Part shown: in pieces, positions 23,260 to 32,000 of the stretch | Layout of the letters: the number at the start of each line of letters is the position of its first letter | Position numbering within the stretch: position 1 is the stretch's first letter | Assembly: GCA_048270185.1 (NCBI GenBank) | Contig: JBLWTJ010000001.1 | Location: 1,152,001 to 1,216,000 of the forward strand | DNA length: 64,000 bases | From: Bacteriovoracaceae bacterium | GTDB lineage: Bacteria > Bdellovibrionota > Bacteriovoracia > Bacteriovoracales > Bacteriovoracaceae | Direction: 5' to 3' | Notes under the pieces: generated by a model | What the model was told of the DNA's origin: nothing | Databases searched by the model: none | Seen by the model: the letters and a program-made list of their open reading frames with translations, nothing else | Translations under genes and position numbers: made by a program

Positions 23260-24198
23260 ATGAAAAACATCGAAGCGCTAAGAAATAGCAGCGAAGATAT
23301 CCTAAATTGCCAAATCAAAGATGAAACAGGACTAAACGATTTTCAAAAAACAGCAAATGATGTTCATATTGCTATCCCAAAAGTTGGGATTGAAAGATTC
23401 CGTATTCCTCTAAACTTCGAACACCGAGACGGAACTGTTCGCTCGACTGATGCACAAGCATCAATGTTCGTCTTCCTTGAAGCTCACAAGACAGGTGCGA
23501 ATATGTCTCGCTTCTGTAACATCCTTCAAGCAGAAGGCCTTGAGAAGAATGTTAACAACCAATTCTTCGCAACAGTACTAAGAAGATACCGTACAGATCT
23601 TCGTGACTACGATACTGAGCCACTAATCCCACAAGCTCACCTAACACTAGACTTTAACTACCCAGTTAAACAACAGTCTCTTAAGTCAGGAAACTGGGGA
23701 TGGCAGTATTACAAAGTTTCAATGGAAGGTATTGAAGGACGCGATGGTATTCCACTAATCAACTTAACACTTGAGTATGAATACTCTTCAACTTGTCCAT
23801 GTTCTCTTTCAATGTCGAAACAATATGAAGAACAATACAGAAACGGTGAGACAACAGAAGGAAGTGGTATTGCTTCTGCCCACTCTCAAAGATCTGTCGC
23901 AACGATCAAAGTTACTTACAAGGCAGAGTCTAACTTCCACCTTGAAGATCTTGTTGATCTAATGAGAATTGCTCTTCCAACTGAGACTCAATCTCTTGTT
24001 AAGAGACTAGACGAGCAAGCGTTTGCCATCCTAAACGGTGACAACCCAATGTTCGTTGAGCACTCGACAAGACGTATCTCAGAAGTTCTAAACTCAGCTA
24101 AGGAGATCCTTGACTGGGAAGCTAAGGTTGAGCACTTAGAGAGTCTTCACAGCCACAATGCTGTGGGATATATCCGTAAAGAAAGACCACAAGTTTAG
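23260..24198 (+). CDS. folE2: GTP cyclohydrolase I type 2 (FolE2)
   Basis: GANMSR, YSSTCPCS, HSQRS, VKRLDEQ, FVE, ESLHSHNA. Confidence 0.95.
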   Translation: MKNIEALRNSSEDILNCQIKDETGLNDFQKTANDVHIAIPKVGIERFRIPLNFEHRDGTVRSTDAQASMFVFLEAHKTGANMSRFCNILQAEGLEKNVNNQFFATVLRRYRTDLRDYDTEPLIPQAHLTLDFNYPVKQQSLKSGNWGWQYYKVSMEGIEGRDGIPLINLTLEYEYSSTCPCSLSMSKQYEEQYRNGETTEGSGIASAHSQRSVATIKVTYKAESNFHLEDLVDLMRIALPTETQSLVKRLDEQAFAILNGDNPMFVEHSTRRISEVLNSAKEILDWEAKVEHLESLHSHNAVGYIRKERPQV

Positions 24199-24220
24199 AC
24201 TTAACAAATAAAATACTTTT

Positions 24221-24250
24221 AAGGCCCCAGAATCTGGGGCCTTTTTTTTT
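24221..24250 (+). terminator. intrinsic terminator after folE2
   Basis: AAGGCCCCAG-AAT-CTGGGGCCTT followed by T-run. Confidence 0.9.
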
Positions 24251-24270
24251 ACTTTTTTTAAATTTCTGTA

Positions 24271-24299
24271 TTGACAACTGAGGGTGAAATCCTTATTCT
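24271..24299 (+). promoter_or_regulatory. sigma70 promoter of tRNA-Val
   Basis: TTGACA-N17-TATTCT, about 20 nt upstream of the tRNA. Confidence 0.8.
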
Positions 24300-24318
24300 A
24301 ACTCCACTTCAAATCGGA

Positions 24319-24394
<76 letters not shown>

Positions 24395-24427
24395 CTTTTT
24401 TTGTGGTACATTCAAAAGAAAAAATCG

Positions 24428-24452
24428 GAACTCAAAAGAGTTCTTTTTTTTT
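24428..24452 (+). terminator. intrinsic terminator after tRNA-Val
   Basis: GAACTC-AAAA-GAGTTC followed by 9 T. Confidence 0.8.
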
Positions 24453-24544
24453 GCCTTTTTTCTTCTCTTAACATTCAATTTCATAAAACTAGCATGCCTC
24501 TTTGCATGCTTAAACGATTCTATGTTCCACTCTGCACGAAACGC

Positions 24545-24598
24545 TGACATAATTCCTGCCATGACAGCACAAAGTGACAAGTTTACTGCCATTGTCTG
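24545..24598 (+). promoter_or_regulatory. operator-like array upstream of cassette 1
   Basis: TGACA-N7-TGCCA twice (24545-24561, 24575-24591, 30-bp period) then TGTCTG at 24593. Confidence 0.5.
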
Positions 24599-24729
24599 AG
24601 AAAAATAAAAAATACTTTGCGATTTTTCGACAGATTTAATCGATAAAAATATAACCTCCACATCAAAACAACTTAATAAAAAACAAGGCTTCAAACAAAC
24701 TGTGAGAGTCTAATAAACCGGAGGAATTT

Positions 24730-25230
24730 ATGAAAAAAATTATCGCACTTGCTGCCGCACTACTAAGCGTTTCATCTTTTGCACTTGATGCATCTGATTC
24801 ATGGTCAACAATCAAAGCTGAAGTAGCTGCTGATTACGATCTATCTTTTACTGGAACAACTGTATTTGTTGGACGTCCAGTTAGCGCATTTGACGTTTGT
24901 CTTGATGGTGATCAATTCGTTACAACTAGAGAATTCCCAATTTACGAAATCGTATTTGTTGGTAGAAATCACTCAGAAGCTGACGAAGATGGTTATGCTT
25001 CAGTAATCGTTGGATACGAAATCCTTTCTTTCCCAACTACTTATACTTCATACAAAGAAGTATGTAAGAACGATGACAAAAACTGTAAGAGAGTTGCTTA
25101 CACTGTTAACCAAGATCTTGTTAAGAACGTTTCTGTAAAAGAAGTTGTTAGAAGAAATGTTGGTAAGAACGATCGTACAATCGAGAGAACACTATTTAAG
25201 AAATCTTTCGAAATCCCAGCTTGTAACTAA
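24730..25230 (+). CDS. secreted 4-Cys beta-rich protein, cassette 1 subunit A1 (unknown family)
   Basis: GGAGG RBS; signal MKKIIALAAALLSVSSFA; WSTI, FDVC, C-x6-C, IPACN; paralogue of 26116, 26929 and 28403 genes. Confidence 0.9.
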   Translation: MKKIIALAAALLSVSSFALDASDSWSTIKAEVAADYDLSFTGTTVFVGRPVSAFDVCLDGDQFVTTREFPIYEIVFVGRNHSEADEDGYASVIVGYEILSFPTTYTSYKEVCKNDDKNCKRVAYTVNQDLVKNVSVKEVVRRNVGKNDRTIERTLFKKSFEIPACN

Positions 25231-25238
25231 TAAATACA

Positions 25239-25274
25239 ATAGCTTAAGCGTTATCCCTAAGGCGCTTAAGCTAT
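25239..25274 (+). other. conserved stem-loop after A1 (TATCCCTAAG loop)
   Basis: ATAGCTTAAGCG-TTATCCCTAAGG-CGCTTAAGCTAT; homologous hairpin at 27444-27473. Confidence 0.7.
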
Positions 25275-25286
25275 ATATTTTATAGC

Positions 25287-26114
25287 ATGACTAGATTCAC
25301 GAACCTATTCATGCTATTTCAACAGCTTATGATAAAAGAAAACTCACCAAATACGGCCCTACAAAAAATGGGACTTATCGAGCAAGTCAGCTATGACCTG
25401 GATAAGAAGTTGCGCGAGTTTAAGAATGTAAAAATTGGAGTTAGGCTAATTTCGGAAAAGTCAGGAGTTAGTGAGAGAACGATCTATCGCCTACTGGCCA
25501 AAGAAAACAAACCAACTTATCAAACTCTTTATAAACTCTATCGAATTATTTTCAATACAAGCAATGAATCACTACTTCTAACCCTTGTCCCAGATGTTAT
25601 TCGTGAAGAGATTAAAAAGTGTAATCCAAATGTCATCTCCCAACAAATTCAATACCACGAAGAAGTTGAAGCACAGATGGCCTATGATCGCACTTTTGCA
25701 GAAATTTACATTATGGCAGCATGTGCACCGATAACAACAGAGCTTATTCAGTACCGCTACGGTATGAGTGGAATGTTAACTGTTGAGAAGATGCTGGAAA
25801 TGAAGACCCTTGCCCAGACAAAATCTGGTACTTATATCCTTGGTGAAAACCAAGCTAATTTTAGTGCTAAAACACTAAAGCGATTAGGTCTTTCTCTAAC
25901 AGAGAAATACTGTAAACCACAGAACGCAGAAAGCTTTGGTGAGAATATCATCTCATTCTTTGCTGATGGATTAAGTGAAGAAGCCTATGACAAATGGCTT
26001 GAAATTGATGCAAGAGCATTTCAAGAAAAAGTTGCTATTGCTAACTTAGAAAAATCAAAAGGAACAAAGAGAGCTTTTACTTTTAATGTAACAGACTCTT
26101 TAAGTGAGAAATAA
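25287..26114 (+). CDS. HTH transcriptional regulator, TIGR02147/DUF4423-like (B1)
   Basis: XRE-type HTH VRLISEKSGVSERTIYRL..ENKPTYQTL; C-terminal GLSEEAYDKWLEID..AFTF; paralogue of 27588-28385; true start may be slightly downstream. Confidence 0.75.
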   Translation: MTRFTNLFMLFQQLMIKENSPNTALQKMGLIEQVSYDLDKKLREFKNVKIGVRLISEKSGVSERTIYRLLAKENKPTYQTLYKLYRIIFNTSNESLLLTLVPDVIREEIKKCNPNVISQQIQYHEEVEAQMAYDRTFAEIYIMAACAPITTELIQYRYGMSGMLTVEKMLEMKTLAQTKSGTYILGENQANFSAKTLKRLGLSLTEKYCKPQNAESFGENIISFFADGLSEEAYDKWLEIDARAFQEKVAIANLEKSKGTKRAFTFNVTDSLSEK

Positions 26115-26115
26115 G

Positions 26116-26670
26116 ATGAAATTATTACTACTACTTCTATTATCAATATCAATCTTTGCAACAGGAGGAGTTGGTGGTACTTCAGGTGGCCCAAAACCGA
26201 AGAAAGATGATTTTGAAAAAATTGGACCAAAGACACCTTGGAGTGAAATCCAAGATATCGCAAAGATTAATAAAGAAGTTAAAATCGCTCATACAGCGAT
26301 CTTCGTTAGTCGTCCACTAAATGTCTTTGATGTATGTGTTGATGGTGACGAGTTTAGATCTGTAGCAAAAGTTCCAAAATACAAGAGAATGCTTGTTGGT
26401 AAAACTCATTTCGGAACTGATGAAGATGGCTACAAAGACGTTAAAATTGGAAATGAGTTTCTACGCTTCCCTATTAACTACACTAAGTATGAAACAAAGT
26501 GTGAGAATGACAATAGAAGATGCCGTCGCGTTAAAGTTGAAGTTAACCGTGAAACGATTAAAGAACTAGAGATTAAAAAAGTTAAGACTTATAAGCCAAA
26601 TAGTGACAATCCTAGAGAAGTCGTTCTCGATAAGAAGAGAAAGGATTACGTTATCCCATACTGTAATTAA
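26116..26670 (+). CDS. secreted 4-Cys paralogue with Gly-rich leader (C1)
   Basis: ATG 1 nt after B1 stop; signal MKLLLLLLLSISIFA then TGGVGGTSGG; WSEI, FDVC, C-x6-C, IPYCN. Confidence 0.88.
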   Translation: MKLLLLLLLSISIFATGGVGGTSGGPKPKKDDFEKIGPKTPWSEIQDIAKINKEVKIAHTAIFVSRPLNVFDVCVDGDEFRSVAKVPKYKRMLVGKTHFGTDEDGYKDVKIGNEFLRFPINYTKYETKCENDNRRCRRVKVEVNRETIKELEIKKVKTYKPNSDNPREVVLDKKRKDYVIPYCN

Positions 26671-26696
26671 GAATTAGATTTCATATAAAATACTTT

Positions 26697-26723
26697 AGGC
26701 CACTCGAAAGAGTGGCCTTTTTT
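26697..26723 (+). terminator. intrinsic terminator closing cassette 1
   Basis: AGGCCACTC-GAAA-GAGTGGCCT followed by T-run. Confidence 0.9.
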
Positions 26724-26753
26724 GACTTAAACTCCATGAAATTTACTGTATTT

Positions 26754-26800
26754 TGTCCATTTGTCATATTTGACCGATCAAACTTGGACAATGTCTGGCA
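26754..26800 (+). promoter_or_regulatory. operator-like array upstream of cassette 2
   Basis: Cluster of TGTC/GACA half-sites including GACAATGTC; TGTCTG starts 137 nt before the ATG, as in cassette 1. Confidence 0.45.
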
Positions 26801-26928
26801 AAAAACAAGTTCATCTCCACAAAAATTGTCACATTATTTTCGAGGCCATAATTTCTCCCCATAGCAAAAACTGAATAACAAATTTGTTTTAAAAACAAAT
26901 CATATCAACAAACAATTCGGAGGAATTT

Positions 26929-27423
26929 ATGAAAAAAATTATCGCTCTTGCAGCTGCAATCCTAAGTGTATCAACTTTCGCAATCGACGCTTCTGACTCA
27001 TGGTCAACAATCAGAGAAGAAGTTAAGGCTAGCCACAACCTAGTAATGTCTTCTGGATACACAGTATTTATGGGTACTACAAGAACTACTGCTTTCAACG
27101 TATGTGTAAACGGTGAAAACTTCAATACAACTACTGAATTCCCAATCTACGAATACGTAAGAGTTGGTGGTGGTAAAGATGGTGACAACTTCAAAAAAGT
27201 TATCGTTGGTTACGAAATCCTTTCTTTCCCAATCGTACGTGAAGTTACTAAGACAATTTGTTACGGTAAGAACGACAACAGATGTAAAACTGTAACTGAA
27301 ATCGAAGAGCAATCAACTGTAAAAGATATCACAATCTCTAAAATCGTAAGACGTGGTGGAGACCGTGATGACAAGCTAGTTAAGCTTTTCACAAAATCAT
27401 ACGTAATCCCAGCTTGTAACTAA
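26929..27423 (+). CDS. secreted 4-Cys beta-rich protein, cassette 2 subunit A2
   Basis: Same RBS context CGGAGGAATTTATGAAAAAAATTATCGC as A1; DASDSWSTI, FNVC, C-x7-C, IPACN. Confidence 0.9.
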   Translation: MKKIIALAAAILSVSTFAIDASDSWSTIREEVKASHNLVMSSGYTVFMGTTRTTAFNVCVNGENFNTTTEFPIYEYVRVGGGKDGDNFKKVIVGYEILSFPIVREVTKTICYGKNDNRCKTVTEIEEQSTVKDITISKIVRRGGDRDDKLVKLFTKSYVIPACN

Positions 27424-27443
27424 GATACTCGCTCGGATCACTT

Positions 27444-27473
27444 GTAAGCGTCTTATCCCTAAGAGGCGCTTAC
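27444..27473 (+). other. conserved stem-loop after A2 (TATCCCTAAG loop)
   Basis: GTAAGCGTCTTATCCCTAAGAGGCGCTTAC; homologous to 25239-25274. Confidence 0.7.
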
Positions 27474-27490
27474 TTTACCGATATAACAAT

Positions 27491-27525
27491 GGCCAAGGAT
27501 TCCCTACCTTGGCCTTTGTAATTTT
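27491..27525 (+). terminator. terminator-like hairpin between A2 and B2
   Basis: GGCCAAGG-ATTCCCTA-CCTTGGCC followed by TTTGTAATTTTT. Confidence 0.6.
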
Positions 27526-27587
27526 TACTACTTACATGAATTAACCCCTTAAAAATGATAATATTGGCCAAATTGAGATGAGGCATA

Positions 27588-28385
27588 ATGAGAGAAGAGA
27601 TTTCTAATACAATCAGTGACTTAGATACTGCCAGGCCAGTTGGTCTTAAGGCACAGGTTGCTAATGATATTAGAGAGCATCTGGCTCAATTTCGAAATGA
27701 ATCAATTGGATTAAGAAAGCTCGCTGAAAAATCAGGAATCCATCAAAGAACTCTTAAGCGTCTAATCGCTCAAGAAAACCGTCCTGGTTATCAAACGTTA
27801 GTTCGTCTCTATACCTGCCTAGTCGAATCATCAAATGGTGGTTTACTTCTAAAGAATCTTCCTGAAAAAGTCGCAAACGAAATACAAAAGAAATCTCCAA
27901 TATCAACTGAAGGTAGTCTTAAGTATAGTGAAGAGGCCAATTCAGAAATGTTCTACGACAAGGTCTTTTCAGAAATCTATTGCCTAGCTTCAATGTCTCC
28001 TATTACAAGTGAATATATTCAATACCGTTATGGGATGAGTGGAGTTGAAACAGCAGATAAGATGCATGATCTTGGAGTCTTAAAACTTACAAAGAATAAA
28101 TCATATACGACGGGTGATATTCAAATTGAATTCTCTCCAAAGCTTGTCAAAAGACTAGGACTTAACCTCGTGGAGAAATATTCAAAAACTGAAGATGTCG
28201 ATTTAGCAGAAAAGAACTTAATTGCTTTCTATGCTGAAGGACTAAGCCCAGAAGGTTACAGAGAATGGCTTAAGATTGACCAACAGGCATTCTACAAAAA
28301 GATCGAAGTAACAAAAAAAGAAGGCATGTTAGGAAATATTAAAACATTTACTTTCATGGCCACAGACACAATGAAAAAAGACTAA
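27588..28385 (+). CDS. HTH transcriptional regulator, TIGR02147/DUF4423-like (B2)
   Basis: LRKLAEKSGIHQRTLKRL..ENRPGYQTL HTH; shares IQYRYGMSG, KRLGL and GLS.E.Y..WL.ID with B1. Confidence 0.75.
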   Translation: MREEISNTISDLDTARPVGLKAQVANDIREHLAQFRNESIGLRKLAEKSGIHQRTLKRLIAQENRPGYQTLVRLYTCLVESSNGGLLLKNLPEKVANEIQKKSPISTEGSLKYSEEANSEMFYDKVFSEIYCLASMSPITSEYIQYRYGMSGVETADKMHDLGVLKLTKNKSYTTGDIQIEFSPKLVKRLGLNLVEKYSKTEDVDLAEKNLIAFYAEGLSPEGYREWLKIDQQAFYKKIEVTKKEGMLGNIKTFTFMATDTMKKD

Positions 28386-28402
28386 GAGAAAAAGGATATA
28401 AA

Positions 28403-29002
28403 ATGAAATTATTAATTAAAATTCTTATTCTTTCTCTTTCATTAAATGTCTTTGCAGGAACAGGTGGGATTAGCTCGCTATTTGGTTTCGGAGATAAAGA
28501 TGGAAAAGGAAAGAATGGAAGAGTAGATGCTGGTACAGGCGGTATCGTTGGCGGTGTCGATGAGCTAAAAGATCTTCAGCATAAAGACTGGAGTACAATT
28601 AGAGAAGCCGTTAAACAAGACTACAAGCTTGACCTTCAGGGGGATATTGCTTTTGTTGGGAAAATTGTCTCAGTTTTTGATGTTTGTATCAATAATGATA
28701 AAGTTCAAACAATCTCAAAACATCCAGTATATAAGCGAGTACGCTTAGCTGGAAACAGAGATAATGATCGTTATAAAGATGTTGTGATCGGACATAAGAG
28801 ATTGTCTTTCCCACTAACGAGAGAAGTAAAAAAACAAATTTGTTTTGGAAAGAGAGATAATAATTGTCGCGAGTACACTGAAGTTGAAAACTTTTCGCAG
28901 ACAAAGAAAATCACTCTACGTGTCGAGAAAAAGCATAGTAGAGAAAATATCGAATATAAGGATGTTTTCACAAAGCCTTATGACGTACCTTACTGCCAAT
29001 AA
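28403..29002 (+). CDS. secreted 4-Cys paralogue with Gly-rich leader (C2)
   Basis: Signal ending VFA, AGTGGI twice, WSTI, FDVC, C-x7-C, VPYCQ. Confidence 0.88.
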   Translation: MKLLIKILILSLSLNVFAGTGGISSLFGFGDKDGKGKNGRVDAGTGGIVGGVDELKDLQHKDWSTIREAVKQDYKLDLQGDIAFVGKIVSVFDVCINNDKVQTISKHPVYKRVRLAGNRDNDRYKDVVIGHKRLSFPLTREVKKQICFGKRDNNCREYTEVENFSQTKKITLRVEKKHSRENIEYKDVFTKPYDVPYCQ

Positions 29003-29021
29003 TCAAAAATAAGTGAAAGAC

Positions 29022-32000
29022 CTAGGCTTCTACGCCTAGGTCTCTTTCATTACTCTTTATTTCTAATTTAATTGAATTACTTGAAATTTTGAAACGAACA
29101 CCATGTTCGAAGCGCCCCTTAACATTATCTCTTAAAAGATCCTTTGTTAGCTCTTCTTCACATCTTAGAGTTCCACTTGCAGTGATACCTATTGAACGAT
29201 TTGGATTTGTATAGATTTTAACAAAATCAATTTTAGAAAGGACAAACGGCAATGATTCGATATAAGACTTGATTCCATCAAAATGGCGGCCTTTAACAAT
29301 CGTCTCTATTGTTGAGTCATCAAGGAATAAACTGGCATCAAATTCAATTTTCGAAAGAGCTACCTCGAGAGTATCTTTCATACTTCTTAAACTTTGTTTC
29401 GCTTCGCGATTTAGTTGTAGTTCCTTTTCCTTTTTCTTTCCTTTAAGGCTTCTTGACTGCTCTCTTAATAGCTCTAGAGATTCAATAATAGTCTTTGACT
29501 TCACTGTCTCTTGGTGAATATTAAGATTTAAACTTTCACACTCTGAGCGCAAGTCACGAATTTCTAAAGAAATTCCTTCTAATAGCTTACGACTATTACG
29601 ATTGGTATCATGGGCATCCTCAAGACTAGCAATAAGCTCATCTTTCTTCAGAAGAAGCTCTCCCTTTACTTTCACCGCTTCATCAATACTTTCTTTTAAA
29701 GTTATTCTCTCTTGAGTTGATTTATCTAATTTTTCTTCGAGATCATCAACTAGAGCTGATGCCTTATTTACTTCATTACGACGGGCCTTATATTCTTTTT
29801 CAACAATGGCCTTTTCATCAAGTTCAATCTTTAAAAGTTCTAGTTTCTCACTATGTAGTTGGTTTACTTGTGCCAGCTCAGAGTTACTTCTTTCAATTTC
29901 TTTACCTAGATGAATAATTTCACCTTTAGCATTTCTCGTATCTTGTTCAAGCTTTTTAATTTCTTCACTCAATTGAACTTTTCTAACGAGATTGGACTCG
30001 AGATTATCTTCTATTTCATTAATCTCAGCCTCAAGATTCGCCATTGAAGATCTAAGTTTATAACAGCTATTTTCTATTTTTGTTAACTCTTCATTACTAA
30101 CAATATTCTTATTCTGAAGCTCCTTACTCTTAATTAGTAACTCGGCTTTCTTATTTGTAAGCTCTGTATGCTTTTGATTCTGAGTTTCGATTGTAAAGAC
30201 GATATTTTCAATACTCTTTTCTGAATCGTTTATAAGACTATTAAGTACTTCTAATTCTGTTTGTATAAGTTTGTGTTGATCTTCATTTTCAGAAACTTTT
30301 AAATTCAGGGCTACAATACGATCATCAAGATTCTTCTTAGATAGAAGTCTAGCATCATATTTCTTATTCTTATTTGATACTTCTGAACGAATCCCCTCTA
30401 ATTGGTCTTCAAGGTTTGAAGCAATTTTAGCTTTCTTAGAAATAAGCTTATCAAGTCTCTTATTATTATTTTCAAGAGATGCCAGTTCAACTTCTTTCTT
30501 TGTAATACCATCTTTTAAAGTTACGATAATATTTTCAGATTCTTCAATTACTTCTAAGTTCTTAGCATGAAGTTGTGTATTTTTATTGATCTCATTATTT
30601 AACTGATCAATTTTACTCTCATACATTGAAATCTTATCTTCAATCGTTTCTAGCTTTGCGATAGTCGAATTAAGCTTGTCGCATAATTTATCGGCAATTG
30701 AAGAAAGACGATTATTTTCAGTCGCCAACTCCTCAACGGCAATTGCTTTTGCTTCAATTCGATTATTACCTATCTCAATTCGCCCCTTCAGGCTTCCAAG
30801 AGTTAAAAGTAATTCATTATTTGTATTATTTAATTTTTGTTCATCTTCTGATAATAGGCCTTGAAGAACATCTTGAGCTTCAACCTCTTCCAGTAATGCT
30901 TCTTTTGCTCTTGTCGATTTCTCCACCTTTAAGTTTAATAGATCGATACTCTTTCTAAGTCCTGAAATCGTAGTTTCAAGAGATAGCTTTTGAGTAGTAA
31001 GACGATTCTTTTCAAGCTCTAGGTTAATGATAGACTCACGAGCTTCAACCTCACTACCCTTTAACTCATTTAAAAGATGACGATGGTCGATCATTTCATT
31101 TGTAGCATTCTTAATCTGTTCTTCAAGACTTAGAATTTTCTTTTTGCGATTTGCATTATTAAATAGAGCTTTTGATTCTTTTGCCTTCAGCTCTTTAAGA
31201 CTCAAGTTAACTCTTTCAAATTCTTTATTTAACTCAGCAACACGATTATCTAATCTTATGCTTTCCGAAAGAACAGCTTCATATTCTTTCTTTGACTTCT
31301 TATAGTCACGATCAACTTGATCAATCTCGATAAGAGAAGATCCTTCTCTCGTTCTTAGTTCATCAAGCTTCTGCTTAGTTTCAACAATTGCCTTCTGAGT
31401 TTCAACAATCTTATCTTGGTATTTTTTGGTTTCATTAGCTAGAATCTTTAGATCTTCTACTAACTCTACTCTTTTCTTCTCTTTCTTCGTTAAATCTCTT
31501 TCTAAATCTTTTAAAGTTTCAAGTTCAACCTTCTCTGTTGTTTTAGTTGAACTCATCTCTGTCTCTATTGATTTAATTTCCGAATTTAGACGAGTAATTG
31601 ATTGTTGAATCTTTTCTTGGTTCGAATTGATCTCTCTAATATTTTCAATTCTAATAACGATTTCTTTTTCAGCTTCAAGCTTTTGCTCCATCAGGTTTGC
31701 TTGCTCAAGCCTTCCCTCTTCAAGCTTTGTTAATGCCTGCTCTCTATTGACCTTGAGTTTTTCACTCTTATCAAGTAAGTGTGAAACTTCCTTATTTAGC
31801 TTGATTCTTTCACCATCGAGAATTTCAATCGATTTATCACACTTGAGAATTTCTTCATTATCAAGTTTAATTTGTGCTTCAAATTTCTTAATTCTCTTCT
31901 TCGTTTCTTCTATTTGAGATTTAAGTCCACTATGAACATCTGTATTGCTAACACGATTACCACTTAGAACGTCAGTTTTACTCTTAAGAGTACTCTCTTG

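Follow-up and report, generated by a model that had tools for sequence, protein, structure and literature searches.

Tandem cassettes of exported four-cysteine proteins with an embedded, putative two-domain regulator in a Bacteriovoracaceae bacterium

The stretch of DNA analysed here, referred to as the window, comprises 64,000 nt from a Bacteriovoracaceae bacterium (assembly GCA_048270185.1, contig JBLWTJ010000001.1, positions 1,152,001 to 1,216,000 of the forward strand). Downstream of a tRNA-Val gene it holds two tandem A–hairpin–B–C cassettes, with all six genes on the + strand (Table 1), in which A and C are small exported paralogues and B is a predicted DNA-binding protein. Taken together, our results give good support to a module confined to the phylum, which links a dedicated protein with two predicted DNA-binding domains to exported, Cys-stabilised proteins whose fold is unrecognised; equally well supported are its strongly asymmetric expression signals and a position-specific, Gly-tailed paralogue.

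Two A–B–C cassettes and their proteins

A preliminary description of this DNA had noted the same three-gene unit twice after the tRNA, and the open reading frames (ORFs), their coordinates and the paralogy of their products bear this out. An identical 14-nt ribosome-binding site, CGGAGGAATTTATG, precedes both A1 and A2, and each C follows its B closely, with gaps of 1 nt (B1 stop to C1) and 17 nt (B2 stop to C2), both as had been claimed. B1 and B2 share 44% identity over 245 aa (E 3e-77). Two of the starts have recorded alternatives: initiation of B1 at 25311 would give a 267-aa form, and the ORF listing opens C1 at a GTG at 26104 (188 aa) rather than at the ATG of the 184-aa form. In an Rfam scan of positions 24000–29300 at E ≤ 1, the tRNA was the sole credible match.

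Table 1. Features of the two cassettes and their surroundings, in window coordinates
Feature	Position	Strand	Remarks
tRNA-Val (TAC)	24319..24394	+	ARAGORN; Rfam tRNA, 65 bits; upstream landmark, membership of the candidate system not implied
GACA half-sites, A1 promoter	24561-24568, 24574-24581		in addition to GCCATTGTC
GCCATTGTC, A1 promoter	24588..24596	.	one-mismatch form of the GACAWTGTC palindrome
A1, exported 4-Cys protein, 166 aa	24730..25230	+	ORF, alignment and signal peptide prediction
Hairpin after A1, 14-bp stem, weak T tail	25239..25274	+	candidate leaky terminator or 3' stabiliser
B1, predicted XRE-type HTH and winged-helix protein, cytoplasmic, 275 aa	25287..26114	+	
C1, exported 4-Cys paralogue, 184 aa from ATG	26116..26670	+	Gly-rich N-terminal tail (TGGVGGTSGG...)
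Terminator-like hairpin, then TTTTTT	26697..26718	+	closes cassette 1
GACAATGTC palindrome	26787..26795	.	134-142 nt upstream of the A2 ATG; candidate operator, perfect
A2, exported 4-Cys protein, 164 aa	26929..27423	+	
Hairpin after A2, 11-bp	27444..27473	+	loop and inner stem TCCCTAAG common with the A1 hairpin
Second A2 hairpin, then TTTGTAATTTTT	27491..27514	+	terminator-like
B2, B1 paralogue, 265 aa	27588..28385	+	
C2, exported 4-Cys paralogue, 199 aa	28403..29002	+	long Gly-rich tail
Hairpin between C2 and the convergent 1151-aa gene	29018..29043	.	bidirectional, terminator-like

A1 and A2 are 55% identical, and A and C proteins 34–38%. The four-protein alignment contains 29 invariant columns, including C57, C112, C119 and C165 (A1 numbering), and the motifs by which the family was first recognised – WS(T/E)I, F(D/N)VC, P.Y, L(S/R)FP, a close Cys pair and a terminal P(A/Y)C(N/Q) – are present in all four proteins. 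The four Cys residues are kept by all 30 aligned homologues, and across the wider superfamily the invariant ones are the first and last only, which suggests a first-to-last disulfide, plus the close pair in this subfamily; two disulfides, probably in this arrangement, would hold A together. All four proteins begin with a signal-like segment ending in FA. The predicted signal peptide of A1 spans residues 1–18 and leaves a mature protein of 148 aa with an isoelectric point (pI) of 4.9; with mature A2 at 7.8, the A proteins range from acidic to neutral, and C1 (9.4) and C2 (9.3) are basic.

No credible match for A1, A2, C1 or C2 was returned by scans of Pfam and NCBIfam. AlphaFold modelled A1 with a predicted local distance difference test score (pLDDT) of 87.3 and a predicted template modelling score (pTM) of 0.69, with a single short helix, several strands that are short and, towards the C terminus, four that are long. 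Foldseek found no solved-fold counterpart for this model in the PDB (best E 0.42, template modelling (TM) score ≤ 0.19), and an ESM Atlas query with A1 gave no usable match. The proposal that A and C constitute an undescribed family of exported, Cys-stabilised, β-rich proteins is upheld by the lack of any family or solved-fold match in these searches. An AlphaFold complex prediction for the mature parts of A1 and C1, with their own alignments, gave ipSAE scores of 0.01 and 0.00, values that count neither for nor against binding. Kinship with Fib_succ_major (PF09603) was considered and rejected, with no match at E ≤ 1 and a partial match only. The partial match concerns two proteins of ~1000 aa with 5–6 Fib_succ_major domains (P0038 and P0063), which match the A/C profile at positions 80–133 only, in 5 stretches each, once per domain (whole-protein E 7e-16 and 4e-10), and it could reflect a shared short motif or a compositional effect.

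B is best read, from its predicted structure, as a cytoplasmic DNA-binding protein with an N-terminal XRE-type helix-turn-helix (HTH) domain and a putative central winged helix. In the AlphaFold model (pLDDT 76), Foldseek matched the N-terminal part to XRE HTH domains with probabilities of 0.93–1.00 (SinR, 3qq6, at 1.00; also cI and C.Esp1396I-type proteins), placing an XRE-like HTH there by fold, and residues ~122–210 of the model matched winged helices. At the sequence level, the Pfam scan of B1 and B2 gave HTH_3 below its cut-off only (17.8 and 20.6 bits, cut-off 23; E 3e-3 and 5e-4), and a PDB sequence search with B1 gave no match at E ≤ 10. The status of an RRNPP receptor was rejected for B: Pfam reported no tetratricopeptide-repeat (TPR) match, and the region after the HTH matches winged helices.

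The earlier assignment of B to the TIGR02147/DUF4423 type did not survive, as neither B1 nor B2 matches either model at E ≤ 1 (the cut-offs are 50 bits for NCBIfam TIGR02147 and 30 bits for DUF4423, PF14394). When all six frames of the genome were searched with TIGR02147 at E ≤ 10, two other loci emerged (78.9 and 67.9 bits) and B did not, and the two true DUF4423 members of the genome score 41.1 and 112.8 bits. When the B family was aligned to two true TIGR02147 proteins with hhalign, only 50 columns of the HTH were covered, at a probability of 2.6%, and a hidden Markov model of the B family matched residues 9–69 of a true DUF4423 protein from the same genome (E 1.8e-4). The language-model neighbours of B are large ‘hypothetical’ clusters from Bdellovibrionota, the nearest with 926, 62 and 64 members, and a DUF4423 cluster appears among them at rank 9 (score 0.92). 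By these comparisons, B is a separate family of TIGR02147-like architecture that falls outside that family's defining models. Elsewhere in the genome, a true TIGR02147/DUF4423 gene (L035:1492-2971; G000:C1:192826-194305) is divergent to a gene for a 165-aa exported protein without family that ends in ...SNCY, and the pairing of a regulator with a small exported protein may extend to the TIGR02147/DUF4423 family.

Distribution, gene linkage and the Gly-rich tail

In its own genome, a query with A1 found only these four copies. A profile built from the four A and C sequences was positive in 15 of 61 related genomes: in 9 of 12 from the same genus, in 14 of 36 from the same family (G000, the window's genome, excluded) and in 0 of 24 from outside the family. 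Near-identical proteins are found in Halobacteriovorax records, all annotated as ‘hypothetical’, and within the genus C1, A2 and C2 have diverged to 49–61% identity, compared with 89–90% for A1. A broader, 30-sequence profile, run against 1.84 billion representatives, matched 208 clusters at E ≤ 1e-3, of which 46 reach E ≤ 1e-10. Nearly all of the matched proteins are exported, 130–200 aa long, and carry an N-terminal SW..I motif and a C-terminal LFTKxYxIPxC end, the C terminus being the most conserved stretch of the A/C family. When 50 of the matched clusters were scanned with Pfam, 46 had no family at E ≤ 0.01, two gave weak, sub-threshold matches, and two were long Fib_succ_major proteins. 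The distant members that carry names come from Bdellovibrionales, Halobacteriovoraceae and Bacteriovorax metagenome-assembled genomes. A 65-sequence superfamily profile was positive in 67 of 301 Bdellovibrionota genomes, with 1–7 copies each (by family label, 33/67 in f1, 19/35 in f9, 5/34 in f14 and 4/6 in f28). The B family, found in 72 of the 301 genomes with up to 6 copies each (51/67 in f1, 12/35 in f9 and 5/6 in f28), largely occurs in the same families (f1, f9 and f28), and its homologues reach Bdellovibrio bacteriovorus at 36–38% identity.

The two families are also linked on the chromosome. In a census of the 30 best B-family loci (L041–L070, ±1.5 kb), 29 have an adjacent A/C-superfamily gene, so that the linkage extends across the phylum, and in 7 of 7 strong loci, which come from four genera, the genes stand in the full order A-B-C. 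All five A/C-superfamily ORFs of the window's genome flank B-family ORFs, three of the four that it encodes. The arrangement varies with lineage, being A-B-C in close relatives, A-B in Bdellovibrionaceae and B-C in several other Halobacteriovoraceae; an obligate A and C pair is therefore not general. In all loci the B and C genes either overlap or lie almost end to end, which implies that their translation is coupled.

Two further loci of the same genome were recorded alongside these. The fourth B-family gene (G000:C4:130788-131984) is followed after 9 nt by one for a 141-aa exported protein with a GGGGWSDD segment and without the terminal Cys, which may be a very divergent C-type protein. A third, divergent pair (G000:C3:56496-57788; L039:671-2736) consists of genes for a 244-aa B-like protein and a convergent, 164-aa A-like protein that ends in LYTIPKCL; here a gene for a 257-aa exported protein without Pfam family overlaps the start of the B-like gene.

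The copies coupled to B are distinguished by a Gly-rich N-terminal tail directly after the signal peptide, with the consensus G-x-G-G-(I/V)-(S/A)-G-G, of which the five Gly residues are invariant in 19 sequences. In each of the 18 distinct A/C proteins whose gene comes directly after B, an N-terminal window of 10 residues contains 5 or more Gly, a number reached in none of the 31 copies located elsewhere. A core-domain tree shows the tailed copies as polyphyletic, with at least 3 changes forced by well-supported branches, and the A and C proteins of a single locus are sisters in L044 (100/99) and L058 (98/98). Because the tailed copies do not form one clade, the tail tracks position rather than core ancestry; to judge from the tree, homogenisation or renewed duplication acts on the cores, and the tail remains with the copy in the B-coupled position. 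Being both tailed and basic, C would be a functionally distinct, low-copy form.

Expression signals, a candidate operator and the surrounding genes

A self-consistent codon-adaptation index was calculated over 3014 ORFs of the window's genome, and the top genes were checked by Pfam. A1 and A2 rank 5 and 6, compared with 305 for C1, 703 for C2, 844 for B2 and 1123 for B1, and the ranks of A1 and A2 are unchanged when the locus is left out of training. Among 20 other top-ranked ORFs that were scanned, 7 encode ribosomal proteins, and the top-ranked set also includes trigger factor, EF-Ts, NDK, OmpA-family and outer-membrane-protein barrel proteins, AhpC and ATP synthase alpha, indicating that the index tracks translational selection. 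The high-expression codons attributed to the A genes are thus real, and A is predicted to be made in large excess over B and C. With codon adaptation at the level of ribosomal proteins, A is probably a main exported product in Halobacteriovorax. The EF-Tu model TIGR00485 had no match at E ≤ 1e-50 in the whole, 95.9%-complete assembly, and the tuf region is probably unassembled.

A hairpin immediately 3' of A had likewise been proposed, and a stem-loop was found in 9 of the 9 A–B spacers that were folded, 3 of which (L026, L027 and L028) have a proper T-tail terminator after A. Between positions 24200 and 29200 there are 16 terminator-like sites, compared with 2.7 ± 1.9 in shuffled sequences. 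The B1 start lies 12–36 nt past the A1 hairpin, and expression of B1 and C1 therefore requires either read-through or a promoter inside A1.

Two other features of the A transcripts deserve mention. The hairpins after A1 and A2 share TCCCTAAG and TAAGCG/CGCTTA stems despite the 55% identity of the proteins, as do the A1–B1 and A2–B2 spacers of L025, and this shared sequence may have a specific function in addition to termination. The A leaders of Halobacteriovoraceae and Bdellovibrionaceae have in common a CA-rich box, CATCAAA(A)CAA(A)C; it lies at ~24650–24670 of the window, before A1, and just before the Shine-Dalgarno sequence in L051–L056, and its role could be to show where transcription begins or to enhance translation.

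The A promoters contain inverted repeats built from GACA and TGTC half-sites. In Halobacteriovoraceae they carry GACAWTGTC, with TGACA/TGTCA half-sites 25–40 nt upstream, and the block CTGCCRTTGTC is kept in the A1 promoter of a same-genus relative (L025). The B loci, 112 kb in all, contain GACAWTGTC 14 times, where 0.67 occurrences are expected, and 11 of these 14 sites are located 31–147 nt upstream of the start of an A-type ORF, in 9 of 10 A-B-C loci; the whole of the window's genome contains 20 copies, a number in line with chance (controls 12–29). In the A-B loci of Bdellovibrionaceae, GGACA-N10-TGTCC stands twice in tandem upstream of A; the pair is clear in 8 of 10 loci, and L052 and L059 have degenerate forms. 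Genome-wide, this repeat occurs 4, 3 and 2 times in the complete Bdellovibrionaceae genomes G131, G156 and G185, and two occurrences in each are the tandem pair. From the presence of the same half-site beside B orthologues in two distant families, we infer that B is the natural candidate to bind it.

The genes flanking the cassettes encode an SBF transporter, an AAA kinase, FolE2, a coiled-coil protein and TauE; these flanks, with their unrelated housekeeping products, are conserved within the genus only. Scans of the flanking ORFs revealed no usher or chaperone family, no secretin, CsgG-like or other assembly or secretion gene, and no peptide importer. With regard to a possible insertion island at the tRNA, same-genus relatives share the flanks, and other genera hold A-B-C in different surroundings. 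A 1151-aa, coiled-coil-looking protein without Pfam family is encoded convergently to C2 (29022–32477, −), and is only 42–43% identical in same-genus relatives, compared with 70–96% for neighbouring genes. Some of these relatives also possess a third A-type gene, A0 (L025:4703-5197 in G011; also L031, L045 and L046), which is absent from the window's genome and sits between the tRNA-Val side and A1, at the equivalent of ~24400–24730; it is closest to A2 (60% identity) and has its own GACAATGTC palindrome.

Interpretation and relation to known systems

We propose that the cassette would function as a self-contained module restricted to Bdellovibrionota, in which B would be devoted to the local control of the adjoining genes for exported proteins, most likely by binding the GACA/TGTC inverted repeats ~100–150 nt upstream of the A genes. 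A, a protein of predicted β-rich fold without solved relative, would be exported by Sec and, in this organism, made in very large amounts, as suggested by its strong Shine-Dalgarno sequence and a codon adaptation equal to that of ribosomal proteins. Its transcript would mostly end, or be stabilised, at the hairpin after A, such that B and C, translationally coupled, would be produced at a much lower level via read-through or a weak promoter of their own. C, which shares the A core but is basic and Gly-tailed, could be a tethered, anchoring or initiating variant, for example. Whether B controls the A promoter through the repeats, with the presumed direction of control running from regulator to exported product, and whether A is a bulk periplasmic, surface or extracellular protein and C a low-copy variant made together with B, is a matter on which we consider the case to be evenly balanced.

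Several observations weigh against this proposal. The perfect palindrome is missing before A1, where there is one mismatch, and in L044, one of the 10 A-B-C loci; B and the repeats are connected by co-occurrence, and a different factor could use them; and solo A-like genes lie far from any B (L032 and L033). To these can be added published data for B. bacteriovorus HD100, in which the orthologues are Bd1645 (A-like; Q6MMI4, CAE79520.1) and Bd1644 (B-like). For positions 24400–29100 of the window, no public RNA run was listed. For HD100, the RNA-seq table of PMC3627812 (file 2) flags both genes as not expressed, with read counts for Bd1645 of 0 (attack phase) and 6 (growth phase). In the tandem mass tag proteomics of PMC12546842 (files 3 and 5), Bd1645 is represented by 5 unique peptides with a flat profile (3.25–3.90) and no significant change at 4 h (log2 fold change −0.15, false discovery rate 0.62), and Bd1644 is absent from the same table. 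The peptides show that the A-like protein is real; as far as these files go, the data argue against constitutively high expression in Bdellovibrio, and high abundance of A may be specific to Halobacteriovoraceae or to unsampled conditions. The literature searched held no text mention of Bd1645, Bd1644, Bd1646, Q6MMI4, CAE79520, WP_015090780 or Bb109J_c1492, and returned unrelated matches only.

The preliminary description went further and pictured A as the abundant major subunit and C as a minor or nucleator subunit, with the ratio set by partial termination after A. Developed into a single surface or extracellular polymer, a fibre or matrix in which C would be the nucleator or anchor and which would exist in two antigenic or functional variants, this model seems to us unlikely. 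Its expression side is favoured by the large predicted gap between A and C and by the hairpin that lies between them, and it is also in keeping with the conserved Gly-rich tail and opposite charge of C (pI 9.3–9.4 vs 4.9–7.8), with A and C cores that evolve in concert within loci, as would be the case for fitting parts, and with an A1 model that forms an open β structure with four long C-terminal strands and no solved relative. Against it, Bdellovibrionaceae have A-B without C, several Halobacteriovoraceae have B-C without A, the flanks lack assembly genes of the kinds listed above, and neither repeat architecture nor a pilin-like fold was found with Pfam or Foldseek. Predatory Bdellovibrionota could have an undescribed envelope or extracellular assembly of their own, based on this fold without solved relative, for which A would supply the bulk material and Gly-tailed C, in low copy number, the anchor or the starting point, and which the two-domain regulator B would switch through GACA/TGTC operators; we regard this extension of our proposal as doubtful, but were it true, the assembly would be among the most abundant cell products in Halobacteriovorax.

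Alternatively, A and C might be independent, soluble exported proteins – prey-directed, binding or protective in the periplasm – that form no assembly, have paralogues diversifying towards different targets and are switched on conditionally by B. The range of 1–7 copies per genome, the solo copies and the varied architectures are what such proteins would be expected to show, and the fast divergence of C1, A2 and C2 within a genus in which A1 stays at 89–90% points the same way, as does the restriction of the family to a predatory phylum, with all named members from Bdellovibrionales, Halobacteriovoraceae or Bacteriovorax. The low basal expression in the HD100 files fits conditional induction as well. 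However, an accessory effector would not usually show the ribosomal-protein-level codon adaptation of A1 and A2, the account gives no reason for the strict Gly-tail rule in B-coupled copies, and no similarity to a known hydrolase, inhibitor or binding fold was found, leaving this account rather improbable in our view.

Hardly credible is a signalling pair, in which the exported product of the gene downstream of B would undergo processing and one of its fragments, such as the LFTKxYxIPxC end, would feed back on B in an RRNPP-like manner: it could appeal to the conservation of the C terminus, to ComR among the weak Foldseek rows for B (5juf, E 0.2, TM 0.21) and to the gene order of PlcR-PapR, where an XRE-HTH regulator is followed by a translationally coupled exported protein, but C is a 17–20 kDa folded domain with a confidently modelled paralogue, A, rather than a short propeptide, the part of B towards its C terminus resembles winged helices and not TPR repeats, no peptide importer is encoded nearby, and the organisms are Gram-negative.

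Bdellovibrio-like predators are studied as ‘living antibiotics’, and much of their exported proteome is uncharacterised. The module offers a testable regulatory circuit, with a candidate regulator, a candidate operator whose half-sites are conserved across families and a defined target, and the Gly-rich tail on the regulator-coupled copy is a simple structural rule open to mutagenesis. Should A prove to be a structural or prey-interaction component, it would be a new part of predator envelope biology; if it is merely a conditionally induced accessory protein, its interest would lie mainly in the new family and fold.

The A/C and B families are absent from Pfam and NCBIfam, their records are ‘hypothetical’, the literature searched is silent and no solved-fold relative of A was found, which would place the module outside known kinds. 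Among systems of comparable organisation, curli (major subunit CsgA, nucleator CsgB and dedicated regulator CsgD) follow the logic put forward in the preliminary description: of two exported paralogues one is abundant and the other low-copy, and an HTH regulator accompanies them. A and C were rejected as curli subunits, as the Pfam scan showed no Curlin repeat and the flanking genes are unrelated; moreover, they lack internal repeats in alignments, A is modelled as a Cys-stabilised globular β fold, no CsgE/F/G-like genes are nearby, and the regulator is encoded between the two paralogues. In a comparison with chaperone-usher pilins, FimA appeared for A only at a Foldseek E of 2.0 (TM 0.18–0.19), although a missing match does not exclude this family. 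The RRNPP systems PlcR-PapR and ComR-ComS have in common with B and C an XRE-HTH protein with an exported product directly downstream, and differ from the present case, where no TPR domain was seen in B, the gene after B encodes a folded domain of 184–199 aa, and the setting is Gram-negative.

Other comparisons are with regulators. TIGR02147/DUF4423 proteins resemble B in length (~250–275 aa), in an N-terminal XRE-like HTH of similar pattern, in a region resembling a winged helix at the centre of the chain (TrmB/MarR matches, though weak, in the true member L036) and in also occurring in Bdellovibrionota, but the profile similarity of B to them is confined to the N-terminal HTH, and B forms a large family of its own. 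Local regulators of the MarR, ArsR, IclR and XRE types, including Kfla_6221 (PDB 4g6q), likewise share with B, as far as its model shows, their DNA-binding folds, a gene that adjoins the presumed target, and palindromic or tandem inverted-repeat sites in the target promoter; B would differ from them in joining two kinds of DNA-binding domain in one chain.

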